37,599 nt of DNA from Candidatus Limnocylindria bacterium (GCA_041486935.1 JBGPMJ010000001.1:1-37599), one strand, 5' to 3'. Counted from the first letter of the stretch, positions 11,940 through 23,038 are shown. The notes: generated from the sequence alone by a model not told the origin. Program-made: numbers and translations.

Positions 11940-12132
11940 GGTGAGTGAGTTGCCTCGGTAGCTGCGAGTCGATGGGCGCGCGGCGGAAGGGCCGGCAGGA
12001 TAGCACGCCCGTTCGAGCGGTCGTCAAGCCCCCGCCTGCGCCCGATTCGACGGCTTGCGGCGTCGGCCGGTAGCATCCGCGCGTCCTCCTCGCGCCGGCG
12101 TGATTCCCCAAGGAGCACTCGAGCAAGTCCCG

Positions 12133-13140
12133 ATGAGCGCGATCCCCATCACGTTCCGCGCCTATGTCGCCGACAAGGCCGACGACGGCTCCGTCGCGCG
12201 CGGCGTGCGCACCTTCGCCGAGGCCGACCTGCCCCCGGGCGAGGTCGAGATCCGGATCCTGTGGTCGAGCGTCAACTACAAGGACGGCCTGGCCACCATC
12301 GCCAACGGCAGGGTGGCGCGCATCTCGCCACTCATCCCGGGCATCGACCTGGCGGGCGAGGTGGTGTCCTCGGCCGACCCGGGCATCGCGGTCGGGTCGC
12401 AGGTGCTCGCCCACGGCTATGAGCTGGGCGTCTCGCGGCACGGCGGCTTCGCCGAGTACCAGCGGGTGCCGGCCGGCTGGGTCGTGCCGCTGCCGGGGGG
12501 TCTCACGCCGCACGAGGCGATGGCGGTCGGGACGGCGGGATTCACGGCGGCCATGAGCGTGCTCCGCCTCGAGGAGCGCGGCCTCGTCCCGGGCAGCGGC
12601 CCGGTGCTGGTGACCGGTGCCACCGGGGGCGTCGGGCGGACAGCGGTGGGTGTGCTCGTGGCGCGCGGCTACGAGGTCTGGGCGGCGACCGGCAAGCCCG
12701 AGGCGGCCGAGGAGCTGCTGGCGCTGGGGGCCTCCGGCGTGCTCGACCGGTCGGAGGTCACGGCGGAGAGCCCCAGGCCGCTCGAGTCGGAGCGGTGGGC
12801 GGGCGCCGTGGACTGCGTCGGTGGCTCGACGCTGCCCTACATCCTGCGCACGCTGCGCTACGGCGCGGCGGTGGCGGCCAGCGGCAACACCGGCGGGCCG
12901 GGCTTCTCGACTACGGTCTTCCCCTTCATCCTGCGCGCCGTGGCCCTGCTGGGCATCGACTCCGTGCCGCTGCCGATCGAGGAGCGGCGGCGGATCTGGG
13001 CCCGCATCGCGAGCGACTTCCGGCCGCGCGGCCTGGGCGAGTCGCTCACGGAGGTGACGCTCGACACGCTCGACGCGGCGCTCGACGACATCCTCGCGGG
13101 CCGCGCCCGCGGTCGGTGGGTCGTCCGTGTCGGCGCGTAG
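12133..13140 (+). CDS. YhdH/YhfP-family quinone oxidoreductase (AcuI-like acrylyl-CoA reductase family)
   Basis: ILWSSVNYKDGLA, GIDLAGEVV, AGFTAAMSV and VLVTGATGGVG (Rossmann) are present. ATG 12133 is preferred over the upstream Arg-rich extension from 12055. Confidence 0.8.
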   Translation: MSAIPITFRAYVADKADDGSVARGVRTFAEADLPPGEVEIRILWSSVNYKDGLATIANGRVARISPLIPGIDLAGEVVSSADPGIAVGSQVLAHGYELGVSRHGGFAEYQRVPAGWVVPLPGGLTPHEAMAVGTAGFTAAMSVLRLEERGLVPGSGPVLVTGATGGVGRTAVGVLVARGYEVWAATGKPEAAEELLALGASGVLDRSEVTAESPRPLESERWAGAVDCVGGSTLPYILRTLRYGAAVAASGNTGGPGFSTTVFPFILRAVALLGIDSVPLPIEERRRIWARIASDFRPRGLGESLTEVTLDTLDAALDDILAGRARGRWVVRVGA

Positions 13141-13200
13141 GCCCGGGGTACCATGGCGCCGTGTCCCCGTAGCTCAGTGGACAGAGCAACCGCCTTCTAA
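13090..13200. repeat. left copy of a 111-bp direct repeat (last 16 codons of yhdH, spacer, 5' half of tRNA-Arg)
   Basis: Aligned by hand to 16145-16255 at a constant offset of 3055. It matches at 109/111 positions, with mismatches at 13116 and 13128. Identity ends at the 3' edge of the anticodon loop (..CTTCTAA). Confidence 0.9.
13163..13200 (+). pseudogene. tRNA-Arg(UCU) 5' half only (truncated after the anticodon loop)
   Basis: Identical to 16218-16255. The downstream sequence CAGGGCCCGTCGGTTCGACGTGCTCC cannot form an anticodon stem, T arm or acceptor stem. Confidence 0.85.
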
Positions 13201-13376
13201 CAGGGCCCGTCGGTTCGACGTGCTCCTGAGCGTGGGTACAGGACCGGATAGGCCGCTGTTAGTTGCTCAGTACGAGCGTCGGTAGCCGTCTTCGCCCCGA
13301 TGAGCGCCAGCACGAGACGGCGTTGCTCAGGGGTGAGGTCCGACAGTCTGAGCACCCGCTTCTCGGCATCCGTCAT
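13197..13376 (-). CDS. possible small ORF (59 aa) coupled to the membrane protein gene
   Basis: The ATG shares one nt with the upstream TGA (TGATG). Sequence: MTDAEKRVLRLSDLTPEQRRLVLALIGAKTA... Its stop codon lies in the repeat junction (TTAGAA). Confidence 0.3.
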   Translation of the reverse strand: MTDAEKRVLRLSDLTPEQRRLVLALIGAKTATDARTEQLTAAYPVLYPRSGARRTDGPC

Positions 13377-13708
13377 CAGGATGATCGACCGCGCAGCAAT
13401 GCGATGAGCCACCCGCCCAGCTGGACCATCGCCCAACCTGCCGCGGTCCCTGTCGTGACGAGTAGAGCCACCGCGATGGCACCGCCAACGAACCACAGCG
13501 GCGTCCTCGGCTGATCGAGGATGAGGGGCCGCAACACCATGAACGCGCCGAAGCTGAGGACGGCGGTGATCGGCAAAGCCAACCAGCGCCAACCGGCGTG
13601 CAACCGGGACGCTAACTCGCTCGTCAGCCGGCCGAAGAGCCACTCGCCAAGCACGAAGACCAACGCGAAGGCGATGGCCACCCCTACCACGCTCGCGACC
13701 TGCTCCAT
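13376..13708 (-). CDS. small integral membrane protein (about 4 TM)
   Basis: 110 aa, dominated by hydrophobic helices (VVGVAIAFALVFVLG, WLALPITAVLSFGAFMVL, LWFVGGAIAVALLV). Confidence 0.55.
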   Translation of the reverse strand: MEQVASVVGVAIAFALVFVLGEWLFGRLTSELASRLHAGWRWLALPITAVLSFGAFMVLRPLILDQPRTPLWFVGGAIAVALLVTTGTAAGWAMVQLGGWLIALLRGRSS

Positions 13709-13820
13709 CTAGAGGACGGTACCACTCCTCATTTGCGGCCCGCCGTCGCCGCAGCCGCCGCCGGCCGGCCTTGGCCGGGATCGAGGGCGGCGACCGGAGC
13801 GGCGGGTCTCGTGGCGCAGC

Positions 13821-14408
13821 CTACAGGGCGGCGCTTGGCTGCGTCACGCGAAACGATGACGCGATGGCCAGGAATGTCGCTTCGTTCACTACGGCGGATG
13901 CCGCGCTGGAGAAAAACGTGAGCTCCCAAAGACGACCGCCAGACGCGAAGACGTAGAGCTCAAGACTGCTCGGCGCCGCCCCCTCATAGCTCCAGCTCCA
14001 GCGGAGCACCCGTCCGCCGTATGGGATGTCGACGCTCGTCGCGGTCGGTTCTCCGAGGAGATCTTCGCGAGAGGCGAGGTCCTCCATGTTGCCCGTGACA
14101 TATGCGTCAAGGGCATCCTCCACTGGCAACTCGCGGGGTACCTCCGCGACGCCCACGCTCATCCTGGCATCGGGGCCGCAAGCAGCGGCGGCCGCGTACA
14201 GCGCATCGACGCCCGCCGGGTACCGCAGCCGCTCCATCACCCGATCGTGACACTCGGGGTGGGCGCGGCCGTAGTCGAGCAGAGCCTCTCGGTAGGCGTG
14301 AGGCGGACGACCGCCAGCCCACCCGTCGGGAAGCTCAAGGGTGAACGGCAGAGGTGCCGTTTCTCGACGCGATCTGATGCCGATGAGGCGGCTGAACAGT
14401 CCCGGCAT
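13821..14408 (-). CDS. hypothetical protein
   Basis: 195 aa with balanced, non-Arg-biased composition (e.g. LELPDGWAGGRPPHAYREALLDYGRAHPECHDRVMERL). It is the longest ORF in its region. Confidence 0.55.
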   Translation of the reverse strand: MPGLFSRLIGIRSRRETAPLPFTLELPDGWAGGRPPHAYREALLDYGRAHPECHDRVMERLRYPAGVDALYAAAAACGPDARMSVGVAEVPRELPVEDALDAYVTGNMEDLASREDLLGEPTATSVDIPYGGRVLRWSWSYEGAAPSSLELYVFASGGRLWELTFFSSAASAVVNEATFLAIASSFRVTQPSAAL

Positions 14409-14532
14409 CGCTGCTCCCTCCGAAACTCTGCTGCACCGTCGCTCTGCATGCTACGGCCGCCGTCGGCTCCGTTCGGCTGGCCGGCGTGGGCCGGGATCGT
14501 CGTCGACGACCGGAGCGGGAGCCGGTGAGAGG

Positions 14533-15027
14533 CTAGGGTGCGTCGCTGACCGGCGGCTTGTCCCGAGCGTGCATCGTCTGAAACGACGCGATCCCGGCGA
14601 ACGCGTAGGCCACGACCATCGCGCCCTCGACGAGCAGCTGACCGTAGTCGAGCGACGTTCCGCCCACCCCATTCAAGACGCTGATCTCCTGGCTGAGCAT
14701 CCACGCCACGGCTCCGCCCAACAGGAGGCTGACCACGCCCCCGAAGGCGCCGCCCTTGGTGCCCCCGCGCAAGACCGCGATGGCTGCCAGCAGCGTCGGT
14801 ACCCCGAGGACTAAGACCACCACGAAGCCCCCGAACGCCGCCCAGTCTTCGGGTTCCCTTGGGGCGAGCATCGCGATCGAGCCCCGGCCCAGCGTCAAGA
14901 CCGCGAGCGCGAGCAGCGTGAGCCCGGCCACGAGCCGGAGGCGGGGGCGCAACATCACTGATAGAAGACGCGGGGCGGCTCCGGGTGTTACGCGGCGCCG
15001 AGTGAGCTGGCATGAGTCAGGTTCCAC
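14533..15027 (-). CDS. small integral membrane protein
   Basis: Four hydrophobic helices. The likely true start is the internal MLRPRLRLVAGL at 14955. Confidence 0.5.
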   Translation of the reverse strand: MEPDSCQLTRRRVTPGAAPRLLSVMLRPRLRLVAGLTLLALAVLTLGRGSIAMLAPREPEDWAAFGGFVVVLVLGVPTLLAAIAVLRGGTKGGAFGGVVSLLLGGAVAWMLSQEISVLNGVGGTSLDYGQLLVEGAMVVAYAFAGIASFQTMHARDKPPVSDAP

Positions 15028-15217
15028 GCTCCTGGCATGACCGAAGGGTGGGGCATCCCGACGGGAATGTACTGAGTCAGCTTGCCGTCGCGGGACAGGC
15101 CGTACATGAACGGCGCCGGCACGTCCGCGTAGGTACCCTACTCACCATGACGACGGACGATCTGGACGATGCTTGGGGCGCCGTCCACGCGGCGCAACTG
15201 GTTAGAGGCACCTCTGG

Positions 15218-15538
15218 ATGCGCAGGCTGACCGGCTATCTCGCGCTCGCCGCCATCGGTGCCTGGTTCTCCTACGGGCTGCTCGAGGGCCGCCCGAAGAA
15301 CGGGCTCGCAACCGATCCGATCATCATCGCGCTCGTGCTCCTCGGTGGCGCAATTCTCCTGCCGGTGGTCGTGTTCGCCGTCAGAGGTAATGATGTCGGG
15401 AGCACCTGGGCGGAGTTTTGGGGCCTCCGGCGGATTACGCGCCATCTCGTGACCCTCTCGGCTGGCCTCTCGGTCGTCGTGGTCTGGGACATCGTCCTGC
15501 TGCTCATCGCTGACCGCATGGCGGGACGGTGGACCTAG
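15218..15538 (+). CDS. small integral membrane protein
   Basis: 106 aa with three hydrophobic helices (YLALAAIGAWFSYGLL, IIIALVLLGGAILLPVVVFAV, LSVVVVWDIVLLLIA). Confidence 0.5.
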   Translation: MRRLTGYLALAAIGAWFSYGLLEGRPKNGLATDPIIIALVLLGGAILLPVVVFAVRGNDVGSTWAEFWGLRRITRHLVTLSAGLSVVVVWDIVLLLIADRMAGRWT

Positions 15539-15762
15539 AGGCCGCCTGGGAGGCCGTCCACGACGCCCTCCCGGCGGGCTGGACGGTGCAGCGCCCGACT
15601 CGCCACGACGAGGAACGGGAGCGGTCCTGGCACGTCTTCGCCACGGATCTACGGCAGCGGGCGAAGCGGCGGGAGTACGTCGAGGCGACGGGCTGGACGG
15701 AAGCCGAGGCGTTGCGCGACCTGCCGGGGCTGCTGCGGGCGTGGAGGGTGGAGGCGGTGTAA
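15529..15762 (+). CDS. small hypothetical protein (77 aa)
   Basis: GTG start overlapping the preceding ORF. The sequence MDLEAAWEAVHDALPAGWTVQRP.. has a truncated look-alike N-terminus (DDLDDAWGAVHAA) encoded at about 15147-15200. Confidence 0.45.
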   Translation: MDLEAAWEAVHDALPAGWTVQRPTRHDEERERSWHVFATDLRQRAKRREYVEATGWTEAEALRDLPGLLRAWRVEAV

Positions 15763-16144
15763 AGGTCGGCGGACTAGCGGGCCGGCCTGTCTCTCGTGAC
15801 CCCCCAAGCGGCCCGACGCCGGAGTGCCTCCTCGGCCTGTGCGGTAGCCATGACGAACGCGGCACGGTCGCCGACCATTACCGCCCGGCTAGCCCGTTCC
15901 TCCGCTCGGTCGCTCGCGCGCCGACGGTGCTGGATGGGGTCGGTCACTGCTCACCTCTCGACCAATCCATGCGCTCACGACCATCGCGGAGTGGTGCCAG
16001 AACGCACCGGAGTTGCCATCGTAGGTGTGGCGTCAAGGGGGGTGGCGCTTGCGCTGGCAGGGGCGCGCGTTTAGAGGTGCAGCGGGCCCCCGAGCGCCGT
16101 GTGGGCCACCGTCCTCGAGGCGCACCTCCCGGCGCGAGATGGCG

Positions 16145-16255
16145 ATCCTCGCGGGCCGCGCCCGCGGTCGATGGGTCGTCCGCGTCGGCGCGTAGGCCCG
16201 GGGTACCATGGCGCCGTGTCCCCGTAGCTCAGTGGACAGAGCAACCGCCTTCTAA
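16145..16255. repeat. right copy of the 111-bp direct repeat (yhdH-tail fragment, spacer, 5' half of the intact tRNA-Arg)
   Basis: See 13090-13200. Both differences fall on synonymous third positions of the yhdH reading frame (CGG/CGA and CGT/CGC). Confidence 0.9.
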
Positions 16256-16293
16256 GCGGAAGGTCGCAGGTTCGAATCCTGCCGGGGGCGCCA
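16218..16293 (+). tRNA. tRNA-Arg (anticodon UCU), CCA encoded
   Basis: Hand-folded. Acceptor GTCCCCG/CGGGGGC, D arm GCTC-AGTGGACA-GAGC, anticodon loop CTTCTAA (anticodon 16251-16253), variable AGGTC, T arm GCAGG-TTCGAAT-CCTGC, discriminator G plus CCA. Confidence 0.9.
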
Positions 16294-17728
16294 TAACAAC
16301 CTCGGGCAAGAGCACAGCCAGCCCATGGTCGTAGGCGGCCGGGGTCAGCCGCGCTCCCACGATCTGTCGCCCCACGACCTCGATCCGCTCGTAGATCGCG
16401 TGCAGCAACTCCGCCTTCGCCTGCGGGACGTCGGCGTGCTGCCAGGTCTCGCCGATGGCCCGCAGCCAGGTGACCGCTCGCTCGGCCGTGACCCCGCCAG
16501 CTGGCGCTTCCAGCAGGTCCGCGAGCCCGGCCCGGAGATGGCCGATCCGCGCGAGGTAGGCGTCGTCGCCGATCCGCCCCGCGACGTGCTCGAGGGCCAG
16601 CTCGCGCATCTGCTTCTCGAGGCGCCTCGTGTCGATCGAGATCGGCCGGCGGGTGGAGGCGAGGACGCCGACGACCTGGGCGATCGTCGCGTCGTCGAGC
16701 TGCATGGTGCTGACCTGGGCGAGGACCGGTCCCTCCCAGGTCACGTCCGGCAGGCGCGCTCGTGGGCCCCACGCCGTGCAAGGCTCGGGATGGAGCTTGC
16801 GATGCTGACCGTTGGCGAAGGTGCCGTCGGAGCGCAATCGTCGTCCGCAGACGCATTCGAGGAGACCGGCGAGCAGATCGACGCGCTCGTGCTGGCGGGG
16901 GCCACCGCCGCGCGCCTTGTTGCGACGGACCTCCTCGGCCCGCGCCCACAGCGCATCGGACACCGGCGGATCGGCGCGCCAGGGGGCGGCTCGGCGCAGC
17001 TCGTCGGGACCGCGGTGACGGCGCATCCAGCCGTTGTAGAGGGGGTTGCGCAGGATCTTCTCGATGCGGCGGACCTTGTAGCCAGTCTCGCGGGCCAGCT
17101 GCTCCGCCGACACGGTGCCTAGGGCGTAGCGGTCGAAGAGCGCCACGGCCCCGTCGATGGCGGCGGGGTCGACCTCGAGCGTGTGCGGCGGCTCGGGTGA
17201 TCGCCGGAAGCCGAGCGGGGGCAGGCCGCCCTGGTCGCCGTACTGGTCGAATTTCGCCGCGTAGCCGTCCGTGATCCGCTCGCCGAGCCGACGGCTGTAG
17301 CGCTCGGAGGCGGCCGACTCGGCGACGAGCTCATCCCAGTCCTGGGGATCGGAGGAGAGGATCCGCCGGTCGCACATGAAGAGGGCCACGCCCACCGGAT
17401 GGAGGCCATCCTCGAGGAGCTCCAGCGTGCGGCGCAGGTTGCGCTGCCACCGATCCGAATAGCCAGCGAGCAAGAGGTCGAAGCCACCAGCACGCGCCGA
17501 CTCGAGCATCGCTGTCATGGTGGGTGAGCGCCAGACCGTCGTGCCCGAGTGCGCCACCTGCCAGACGAGCCCCGTGTCGACGAGCCCATAGCGCTCGATG
17601 GCGCGGTCCTGCTGCTCGCGCTGGCTGCCGGGCCCGAAGCGGTCGTACTGGCCCGGCCTCGACTCGCGGATCCAGCGCGCGGCCCGGAGGCCGCGCACCT
17701 CGTCGATCGAGCGCGGGAGCCGTCTCAT
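16229..17728 (-). CDS. large serine recombinase (integrase)
   Basis: Resolvase-type N-terminus RAARWIRESRPGQ...GSQREQ, YSDRWQRNLR, and E-helix ERYSRRLGERITDG. Recombinase domain EKILRNPLYNGW, Zn-ribbon LECVCGRRL, and a coiled-coil tail. Start at MRRLPRS (17728, ATGA overlap with the upstream ORF). The 609-aa ORF extension is Arg-rich shadow. Confidence 0.85.
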   Translation of the reverse strand: MRRLPRSIDEVRGLRAARWIRESRPGQYDRFGPGSQREQQDRAIERYGLVDTGLVWQVAHSGTTVWRSPTMTAMLESARAGGFDLLLAGYSDRWQRNLRRTLELLEDGLHPVGVALFMCDRRILSSDPQDWDELVAESAASERYSRRLGERITDGYAAKFDQYGDQGGLPPLGFRRSPEPPHTLEVDPAAIDGAVALFDRYALGTVSAEQLARETGYKVRRIEKILRNPLYNGWMRRHRGPDELRRAAPWRADPPVSDALWARAEEVRRNKARGGGPRQHERVDLLAGLLECVCGRRLRSDGTFANGQHRKLHPEPCTAWGPRARLPDVTWEGPVLAQVSTMQLDDATIAQVVGVLASTRRPISIDTRRLEKQMRELALEHVAGRIGDDAYLARIGHLRAGLADLLEAPAGGVTAERAVTWLRAIGETWQHADVPQAKAELLHAIYERIEVVGRQIVGARLTPAAYDHGLAVLLPEVVMAPPAGFEPATFRLEGGCSVH

Positions 17729-22072: not shown

Positions 22073-23038
22073 CTACACCCCGATCGCCACCGCCACATCA
22101 GGCCACGTCCGGTCGGCCTCGCCCTCAAGTCGCCGGAGGTAGACGGTGGTCACCGCGAGCGAGCTGTGGTCGAGGAACGCGCTCACCGCCTCGACCGAGG
22201 CACCGGCGTCCCGTCGAAGCTTCGCCGCCGTGTGCCGGAGGACGTGGAGCCCGGTCGGCGCAAGGCGAGCCGCCGCGAGGTACCGGCGGAACCGCCCGTA
22301 GAACGTGCCGCTTGTGATCCCACAGGGGCGCGCCCCAGCCTGCCAGAGCGACCCGTCCGGTTCCATCGTCGCGAGGTCCTTGCCGGCGTCGGCGAGCGTG
22401 GCGCAGATCGCCTCGAAAGCCGGTCGCGGAAGTTCCCGCCGACCCCGCTTGCCGCCCTTGCCGCGGTAGGCGTAGAAGGCCGTCTCGCCCTCGAGGCTGA
22501 GATCGCCGGCCCGCAGGCTCATCACCTCGGCGCGGCGCCGCCCGGTCAGCACGAGGACCAGGAGCATCGCCCGGTCCCGCCGTCCTGCGACGGTGTCAGG
22601 GACGACCGCGAGCAGGCGACGGACCTCATCCGCTGAGTAGCCGCGAGCGACGGAAGGGACGGTCCGTGGGCGCTCAAGCGCGTCGCACGGGTTGGCGATC
22701 ATCAAACCCATTCGGATGCCGAAGCGATAGAAGGAGCTGAGACAGGCGATCCGTGCGCCGACCGTCGCGGCGGATGGCGTCCGACCCGACAGGCCGATGC
22801 CGTGAGCGTAGGCGAGGACGTCCGAGGCGCGGACCCGATCCGGGGTCGTCACCCGGAAGAACGGCCAGAGCATCCGGGCATAGCTCTCGACCGTGCGGGT
22901 CGAGCCTGAGCGGCTGCGTTTCTCTACCAGGAACGCGTACAGGGCCTGGTCCCACGTGGAGCCGCCGCCGGTGGTACGGGCGGGGAGGAGTTGCGGGTTC
23001 ACGGGCGATCTCCTGAGCGAGTGGATCGACCACATCAC
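22073..23038 (-). CDS. tyrosine recombinase / phage-type integrase
   Basis: The catalytic-domain signatures GRRRAEVMSLR, LHVLRHTAA and LDHSSLAVTTVYL (R..HxxR..Y) are present. Confidence 0.85.
   Translation of the reverse strand: MMWSIHSLRRSPVNPQLLPARTTGGGSTWDQALYAFLVEKRSRSGSTRTVESYARMLWPFFRVTTPDRVRASDVLAYAHGIGLSGRTPSAATVGARIACLSSFYRFGIRMGLMIANPCDALERPRTVPSVARGYSADEVRRLLAVVPDTVAGRRDRAMLLVLVLTGRRRAEVMSLRAGDLSLEGETAFYAYRGKGGKRGRRELPRPAFEAICATLADAGKDLATMEPDGSLWQAGARPCGITSGTFYGRFRRYLAAARLAPTGLHVLRHTAAKLRRDAGASVEAVSAFLDHSSLAVTTVYLRRLEGEADRTWPDVAVAIGV

Follow-up and report, generated by a model that had tools for sequence, protein, structure and literature searches.

A probable stranded remnant of a 5'-half-replacing tRNA-Arg element in Candidatus Limnocylindria

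What kind of recombination leaves an insert at a tRNA gene between two copies of a sequence that holds the end of a protein gene together with half of the tRNA? We asked this of a locus in a metagenome-assembled genome (MAG) of Candidatus Limnocylindria bacterium. The window analysed here is the whole stretch of 37,599 nucleotides (nt), GCA_041486935.1 JBGPMJ010000001.1:1-37599. It is the entire contig C1 of a source MAG that is 73% complete in 348 contigs, and all coordinates without a contig name refer to it. In this window, an insert of 2.9 kb is bracketed by a 111-bp direct repeat that is made of the tail of a yhdH-type gene and the 5' half of tRNA-Arg(TCT). We propose that the insert is probably the stranded left-hand remnant of a tRNA-Arg(TCT) element and that its right joint was illegitimate and homology-assisted rather than made by an integrase.

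The repeat, the empty site and the left junction

The two copies of the repeat (13090-13200 and 16145-16255, both on the + strand) are identical at 109 of 111 positions in a gap-free alignment, with 72 nt as the longest mismatch-free stretch common to both. Each copy comprises the final 16 codons and the stop codon of yhdH, a 22-nt spacer and tRNA positions 1-38. The next-longest direct repeats within the 37.6-kb window are 43 nt long with 65-84% identity, and the 111-bp repeat is far beyond chance. The mismatches are 13116 G/A and 13128 T/C (left/right copy), both at third codon positions in the frame of the open reading frame (ORF) that ends at 13140 (CGG/CGA and CGT/CGC, all arginine). That ORF, 12133-13140 (+), is an intact yhdH-type gene of the acrylyl-CoA reductase family (Pfam ADH_N and ADH_zinc_N; NCBIfam TIGR02823 with a score of 406 bits and a cut-off of 297). 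The left copy ends with a displaced 5' half of tRNA-Arg(TCT) at 13163-13200 (+), a pseudo-tRNA that stops at the final base of the anticodon loop. The right copy begins with a host-type upstream region that contains a TACCAT box and runs into the sole intact tRNA-Arg(TCT) of the window at 16218-16293 (+; ARAGORN; Rfam RF00005, 68 bits). Since the anticodon loop of this tRNA occupies 16249-16255, the identity between the copies stops at the last base of the loop (16255, tRNA position 38). Both yhdH and tRNA-Arg are intact despite the insertion. These results bear out a preliminary description of this DNA, which had reported the repeat with its two synonymous differences, an insertion point in the anticodon loop where integrases are known to cross over, and a duplication of the tRNA 5' half that leaves the intact tRNA at the right end.

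The same description had proposed a search for the empty site in relatives, and this site was found. An exact 36-mer scan of metagenomes gave no match; a degenerate pattern afterwards revealed empty sites on five metagenome contigs (L120-L124), with the order (methylase), yhdH, 22 nt and intact tRNA-Arg(TCT). L120 retains only a partial tail of yhdH. The yhdH orthologues that adjoin the empty sites are 90-94% identical to that of the window in amino acid (aa) sequence, and none of the five contigs carries the P' arm or the serine recombinase that are described below. The interval between the methylase and tRNA-Arg varies among genomes (window 11940-12132; L027 9642-9951). It holds yhdH alone in the window, lacks yhdH in the genus relatives G001 and G004, and in closer relatives (L121 1420-3941; L124 1536-4057) has an extra 2.5 kb before yhdH with two genes, one ADP-forming acyl-CoA synthetase-like and the other of the hotdog fold. 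The idea that yhdH is itself the cargo of an older element was dropped, as no remnant of a tRNA or an arm lies before yhdH.

The left junction, 13200|13201, opens into a conserved arm. To the right of 13200 the sequence reads CGACGTGCTCCTGAGCGTGG ... CTGTTAGTTGCTCAGT and is conserved in other genomes; this arm, P' (13201-13276, +), includes the 16-nt motif CTGTTAGTTGCTCAGT at 13256-13271 (+), a candidate arm-type binding site that is present as a single copy in the window. When the query 13196-13300 was searched against 401 family genomes, 36 of them matched. At 14 of the 16 best loci, which come from many other genera, an arm of about 60-75 nt follows directly after the 5' half of tRNA-Arg(TCT), and these arms are homologous to 13213-13276 with 75-91% identity. 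The 5' half in those loci ends with ..CCTTCTAA(G), and the endpoint of identity in the 14 other loci matches that of the window within 1-3 nt. In these left attachment sites (attL) the motif is again present, at a position of about +93 counted from the tRNA start. The DNA methylase to the left of yhdH in the window is often also the upstream host gene at the other attL loci, which shows that one chromosomal tRNA locus is concerned throughout the family. On the strength of these sequence comparisons we assign 13200|13201 as a canonical attL, formed by the displaced 5' half and the P' arm with its CTGTTAGTTGCTCAGT motif (13163-13276), of an element family that replaces the tRNA 5' half. L125 is an occupied relative with the same attL; its first cargo gene is 94% identical to that of the window (a 110-aa ORF), and its cargo past this gene is different.

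Architecture of the element family

Six longer loci have the 5' half/P' junction to the left of an intact tRNA-Arg(TCT), at distances of 1.5, 3.3, 5.5, 5.8, 11.5 and 17.3 kb. The order on the longer contigs is 5' half, P' arm, cargo, Xer-like tyrosine integrase, 16-nt motif, conserved arm and intact tRNA. The 300-aa integrase stands immediately left of the intact tRNA in L107 and on contig C64 of genome G020 (G020:C64), and its ORF is uninterrupted in both; the copy in L105 is fragmented. It has the Pfam domain Phage_integrase and an N-terminal SAM-like domain, is Xer-like by NCBIfam with scores under the XerC/XerD cut-offs, and is transcribed away from the tRNA at a distance of about 100 nt. 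In L105, L106, L107 and G020:C64 a second CTGTTAGTTGCTCAGT motif lies upstream of the intact tRNA, at about -96 to -99; in the last two it is about 10-20 nt away from the start codon of the integrase. All the way to the tRNA start, the loci share a conserved right arm (..CGTCAA..N10..TCGTGCGTAGACTGAGCAAC..ACCGC). L106 has the motif and the arm without an integrase, and L103, L104 and L111 have the proximal arm alone.

These loci suggest a scheme of integration. A complete element would carry its own tRNA 5' half together with about 100 nt of a conserved upstream arm that includes the 16-nt motif and a TAGACT box. Integration would displace the host 5' half and its promoter leftward, generating attL (host 5' half/P' arm), and the tRNA would be rebuilt at the right end, where the right attachment site (attR) would consist of the integrase, the motif, the arm and the 5' half joined to the host 3' half. 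We infer that the exchange is catalysed by the tyrosine recombinase inside the 7-nt anticodon loop; the activity of the integrase, the position of the crossover and a promoter function of the arms are predicted from the conserved arrangement. Since the element would bring both the 5' half and its own upstream region, the rebuilt tRNA would not be driven by host upstream DNA. A scan of 12.9-16.4 kb in the window for sigma-70 promoters and terminators returned zero sites, and for this reason a promoter role of the TACCAT and TAGACT boxes is taken here as putative.

The extent of the duplication at these loci bears on the repeat in the window. In six other complete insertions it is usually the 38-40-nt 5' half alone, and in none of the six does it include host coding sequence. 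This comparison speaks against the 111-bp duplication as the attachment site of the element. In L106, and over a shorter stretch in L104, the duplication extends into part of an element-type right arm; this arm-like sequence upstream of the left copy suggests earlier occupancy. The family may replace the host tRNA promoter and 5' half in a stepwise manner; several tRNA-Arg upstream regions in Limnocylindria that look native would then be what its arms left behind, as these left copies hint. L103 and L106 each contain an additional copy of the tRNA 3' half to the right of the intact tRNA, at distances of 5.8 kb and 3.1 kb, respectively, and these copies resemble classical 3'-type islands in tandem with a 5'-type element.

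The right junction and its possible origin

At the right end of the insert, the joint 16144|16145 (16140-16149) is non-canonical. The cargo, whose end reads ..GAGATGGCG, passes here into the second copy of the host yhdH tail with an abrupt onset of identity to the left copy. A second motif is missing from both strands of the window even with up to 3 mismatches, as is the conserved right arm (..TCGTGCGTAGACTGAGCAAC..) upstream of the window's intact tRNA. A tblastn search of the window for remnants of the family integrase came back empty, and the closest homologue of this integrase in the MAG is 39% identical. The parts of a canonical attR, namely the integrase start, the motif, the conserved arm with TCGTGCGTAGACTGAGCAAC and the intact tRNA in succession, are thus not found together in the window. 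Nor does the window contain a third copy of the tRNA or the arms; it has one tRNA 3' half within 3 mismatches and one motif. Host sequence occupies the 73 nt that precede the intact tRNA, and it aligns over its full length with the yhdH-tRNA junction of L120-L124. Because the right repeat is of host type and the arm, the motif and the integrase are absent, we read the joint as illegitimate and not as an attachment site. The insert also has a foreign composition, with 66-70% GC versus 72-74% in the flanking core, which we count in favor of an element remnant. The surviving parts would be attL and some cargo, the latter fused to position -73 of the host tRNA upstream region. Such a remnant would probably not be excisable in a site-specific manner and could be lost only by homologous recombination between the 111-bp repeats.

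The absence of a recombinase between the repeats had been stated in the preliminary description, and it agrees with our results. Pfam, PHROGs and NCBIfam gave zero matches for those insert ORFs that were scanned, with no recombinase among them, and the tblastn search described above recovered no piece of an integrase.

Illegitimate joints with one homologous side have a precedent. In homology-facilitated illegitimate recombination, one homologous anchor and one illegitimate joint insert foreign DNA and duplicate a stretch of the recipient, giving host-derived direct repeats of arbitrary length. We infer this mechanism for the window from its structure, and three routes could have led to it. 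In route (a), an occupied chromosome would have recombined with an empty one from the same species through one homologous anchor and one illegitimate end, in either direction. In route (b), 13090-16144 would have been duplicated in tandem, and the integrase would then have precisely excised the right-hand copy, which was complete. In route (c), repair of a double-strand break would have copied from the left repeat and been completed by end joining.

The bases within the repeat give some indication of where the second copy came from. Both copies share bases that are absent from L120-L124 (GCGGGCCGCGCCCGC versus GCCGGCCGTGCGCGC, and ..CCGT versus ..CCGC before the tRNA), suggesting that the second copy originated in the same species-level lineage. 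At the sites 13116 and 13128, most relatives carry (G,C), as against (G,T) in the left copy and (A,C) in the right one, so that each copy has one derived change; the empty-site relative L121 has (A,C) in a functional yhdH. This allele pattern slightly favors route (a). The preliminary description had concluded from the synonymous mismatches that one copy came from a functional yhdH of a related genome. As an argument this is weak, because chance alone would place the single change of the right copy at a third position in 1/3 of cases; an origin on a second chromosome is nevertheless plausible, since L121 has A,C.

Several considerations weigh against our interpretation of the right joint. Routes (a), (b) and (c) all yield exactly this product and none of them is singled out. 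The difference between the repeats is 1.8% (2/111 nt) versus a divergence of 0.37% from a sister strain, which weakly suits an origin on a second chromosome somewhat over a recent copy made in situ, two events being counted. The breakpoint at 16144 cuts no visibly recognisable gene, and it is because of this that the illegitimacy of the joint is deduced from the missing parts. The loss of the integrase is not diagnostic by itself, because integrase-less elements with canonical arms exist (L103, L104, L106 and L111). Finally, the structure is known from assemblies, and a minor alternative arrangement may exist in the population.

The same structure could be explained by a mini-element, i.e. a recombinase-less unit of 3,055 bp that had captured the 111-bp host arm and entered the empty site as a circle, either with an integrase supplied in trans or by Campbell-type homologous recombination through the 111 bp. 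An aberrantly excised circle with the yhdH tail, the 5' half, P' and cargo would give exactly this structure upon entry into yhdH-tRNA. The presence of the right-copy alleles (A,C) in a functional yhdH by an empty site (L121) and the synonymous nature of both differences are consistent with such an entry, and the integrase-less relatives with both arms listed above make mobilisation in trans conceivable. However, no second copy of the 2.9-kb unit was found in the MAG. The preliminary description had suggested searching for the segment elsewhere; in a draw of 400 other family genomes only single pieces recur, never the whole, and an exact-protein look-up of one cargo ORF (195 aa) returned the same population only. 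The captured arm would moreover lack the motif and the conserved arm that every canonical right end has kept, the MAG contains no cognate integrase (the best match being the 39% homologue), and the lineage-specific bases common to both arm copies give no sign of travel between hosts. We consider a mini-element unlikely on these grounds. A variant of it is a 3-kb integrase-less derivative that exchanged its canonical right arm for host sequence and may now spread among strains of the species, entering yhdH-tRNA-Arg either through Campbell-type homologous recombination or with an integrase acting in trans. It seems to us quite improbable that two things hold jointly, with the 111-bp arm being the adopted right arm of a mini-element and the family broadly leaving arm relics upstream of tRNA-Arg.

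A stranded remnant presupposes that the arrangement is real, and the possibility of an assembly artefact was examined using other assemblies located by exact-protein look-ups. The window is a contig of a short-read MAG, in which two strain variants, or a chromosome and a separate 3-kb circle, could have been mis-joined; the 72 nt identical in both copies would form a node with two ways in and two ways out in a de Bruijn graph. Two other assemblies break in this region, where JGI and NCBI contigs end at 13403 and another JGI contig begins at 13526, perhaps owing to strain variation or a drop in coverage. Against a mis-join, the link from yhdH through the left repeat (G,T) to P' is present in contig 0013064 of the JGI metagenome 3300052992 (up to 13403) and in contig JBGQFV010000076 of the NCBI MAG GCA_041497055.1, which represents a distinct strain with 99.63% identity over 7.3 kb. 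JGI contig 0000501 (48 kb) runs from 13526 through cargo, the right repeat (A,C) and the tRNA 3' half into the serine recombinase, and differs from the window at a single position in 10.9 kb. Positions 13171-16201 are matched at 100% identity by a Logan contig from SRR35969122; the length of this contig is close to that of the unit, as a circle might give, but it ends without the overlap expected of a circle. The same attL is also seen in long-read MAGs of other genera. Since both links are observed independently, a circle plus an empty site is excluded unless all assemblers erred alike, and an artefact is extremely improbable. The assembly duplication that the preliminary description had named as a possible refutation is accordingly unlikely, with four other contigs carrying the same junctions.

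Cargo, neighbouring elements and known systems

The cargo remnant (13277-16144) contains ORFs at 13376-13708 (-), 13821-14408 (-), 14533-14955 (-), 15218-15538 (+), 15529-15762 (+) and 15774-15947 (-). A tblastx comparison of the insert with all loci gave only noise except for a 77-aa ORF. The homologue of this ORF on MAG contig C177 was set aside as a partial match in an unrelated context. In genome G022, a region of locus L072 (12973-13725) has, in reversed order, an intact tRNA-Arg(TCT), a DUF4287/DUF5655 gene, a diverged 5' half/P' arm, a homologue of the 77-aa ORF and core genes. It has no second intact tRNA and no recombinase, and may represent an element in decay whose tRNA was supplied anew. 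Two insert genes are followed on their 3' side by a GC-rich intergenic repeat (13760-13802 versus 14476-14518, 84% identical; also 14453-14569). Its second copy has matches of 72-91% in at least 8 other family genomes and may be REP-like or terminator-like.

Directly to the right of the repeat is a large serine recombinase gene (16229-17728, -; Pfam Resolvase and a weak Recombinase match), which the preliminary description did not mention. Its last 21 codons lie antisense inside the intact tRNA. Homologues with 31-70% identity likewise abut tRNA-Arg(CCG/TCT) or tRNA-Lys in antisense at 13 of the 20 Limnocylindria/Chloroflexota MAG loci scanned as well as in G020; loci with this arrangement include L035-L045, L050, L032 and L034. 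This placement indicates that the recombinase marks an element family of its own on the 3' side of the tRNA. Further to the right are a DUF3987 gene, a NERD gene, a distantly related tyrosine integrase, an AAA_21 ATPase and an IS110 element, and then a methylase/DndB-like cluster of lower GC. When 17.7-37.6 kb was compared with genus relatives at the DNA level, hardly any matches appeared, and the right end of the serine recombinase element was not found. The tyrosine integrase (22073-23038, -) is 29% identical to the tRNA-Arg element integrase over 103 aa and has four DNA copies of about 70% identity in G020, from which we conclude that it belongs to a different, multi-copy element. Among the empty-site contigs L120-L124, the sequence next to the CCA end of the intact tRNA is of three unrelated kinds, suggesting that the 3' side of tRNA-Arg is also a hot spot.

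Could this serine recombinase have captured the insert, with the tRNA acting as a platform, much as an integron attI does, for cassettes that carry the tRNA 5' half? The recombinase abuts an intact tRNA in the window, in G020:C64 and in L037. L037 (6768-10437) has three direct copies of the tRNA-Arg(CCG) 5' half with about 60-120 nt of upstream sequence; the tRNA is complete only at the copy that adjoins the serine recombinase, and a shared arm comes after each of the other two, which stand beside PIN/VapC-like genes, so that the locus resembles a tandem array of short recombinase-less units. However, six loci of the same attL/attR architecture are without any serine recombinase, complete elements have their own tyrosine integrase beside attR, and no 5'-half direct repeat was detected at 11 of the 12 recombinase-tRNA loci checked, L037 being the sole exception. 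For exchange by serine recombinases a 2-bp core suffices, with no need for an identity of 38-111 bp. Capture by the neighbouring recombinase is hence very unlikely in our judgment. Two further loci of the recombinase family are worth recording. L034 (contig C40 of G020) has a 62-codon tail of the recombinase gene by the tRNA without the body of the gene, and this lone tail suggests that the crossover may lie inside the 3' end of the recombinase's own gene. In L051 (4780-4890, -), a tRNA-Arg(CCG) breaks off in the T-loop, and directly after it comes a slightly malformed second copy by the serine recombinase; this is a long-read assembly, in which indel errors are possible.

Integration at tRNA genes almost always replaces the 3' part, so that the tRNA promoter is retained. 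The exceptions include the pTN3-like integrases of Thermococcales, for which the attachment site is the tRNA 5' half (in pTN3 41 bp, tRNA-Leu positions 2-44) and an element-borne 5' half goes into the rebuilt intact tRNA, which is parted from its original promoter (PMC5495485, PMC8371274). This arrangement is seldom met in bacteria (PMC8371274, citing Williams 2002). The Limnocylindria family resembles pTN3 and TKV4 in using the tRNA 5' half as its site. It differs in that the attP of pTN3 lies inside the integrase gene, which is split upon integration, whereas the Xer-like integrase of the Limnocylindria family stays whole; in addition, its host is bacterial and its target is tRNA-Arg(TCT), while pTN3 is archaeal.

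With classical tRNA islands of the P4, L5 and pSAM2 type, the family shares a crossover in the anticodon loop, a tRNA fragment in direct orientation at the ends, an integrase that adjoins the intact tRNA and tandem occupancy of one tRNA (PMC4383910). The configuration filter of Islander admits 5' fragments upstream (PMC4383910). Viewed in such terms, the window has its 5' fragment (13163-13200) and the intact tRNA (16218-16293) on one strand with the fragment upstream, a junction identity that stops in the anticodon loop and an empty site in related genomes, and it has no integrase gene inside the island. Classical islands replace the 3' part of the tRNA; in contrast, the Limnocylindria family replaces the 5' part and supplies an upstream region. 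The window differs from them further in that its right end is no attachment site.

The insert may also be compared with cis-mobilizable elements (CIMEs). These are short recombinase-less segments between att-site repeats, known from the sites of streptococcal integrative and conjugative elements (ICEs), that stand in tandem with an element at the same tRNA-type site and keep an attL and an attR recognised by the integrase of the neighbouring ICE. The window insert is likewise a short segment without a recombinase in tandem with another element. It differs from a CIME in that attR is absent and the adjacent element encodes an unrelated serine recombinase.

Taken together, the sequence comparisons place the Limnocylindria family as a further member of a rare, already known kind of element that replaces the tRNA 5' half, and the copy in the window as a probably degenerate and immobilised derivative. 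The 111-bp repeat itself is an evolutionary scar of modest interest. The window illustrates how an island may become stranded, and island finders that require an integrase or an attR would miss or mis-delimit a remnant of this sort. The wider significance lies in the family, which recurs at 14 or more other loci in many genera of Limnocylindria, a little-studied class of soil and freshwater Chloroflexota. It would be a bacterial counterpart of the archaeal pTN3 with compact parts, namely an integrase of 300 aa and an attP of about 200 bp.

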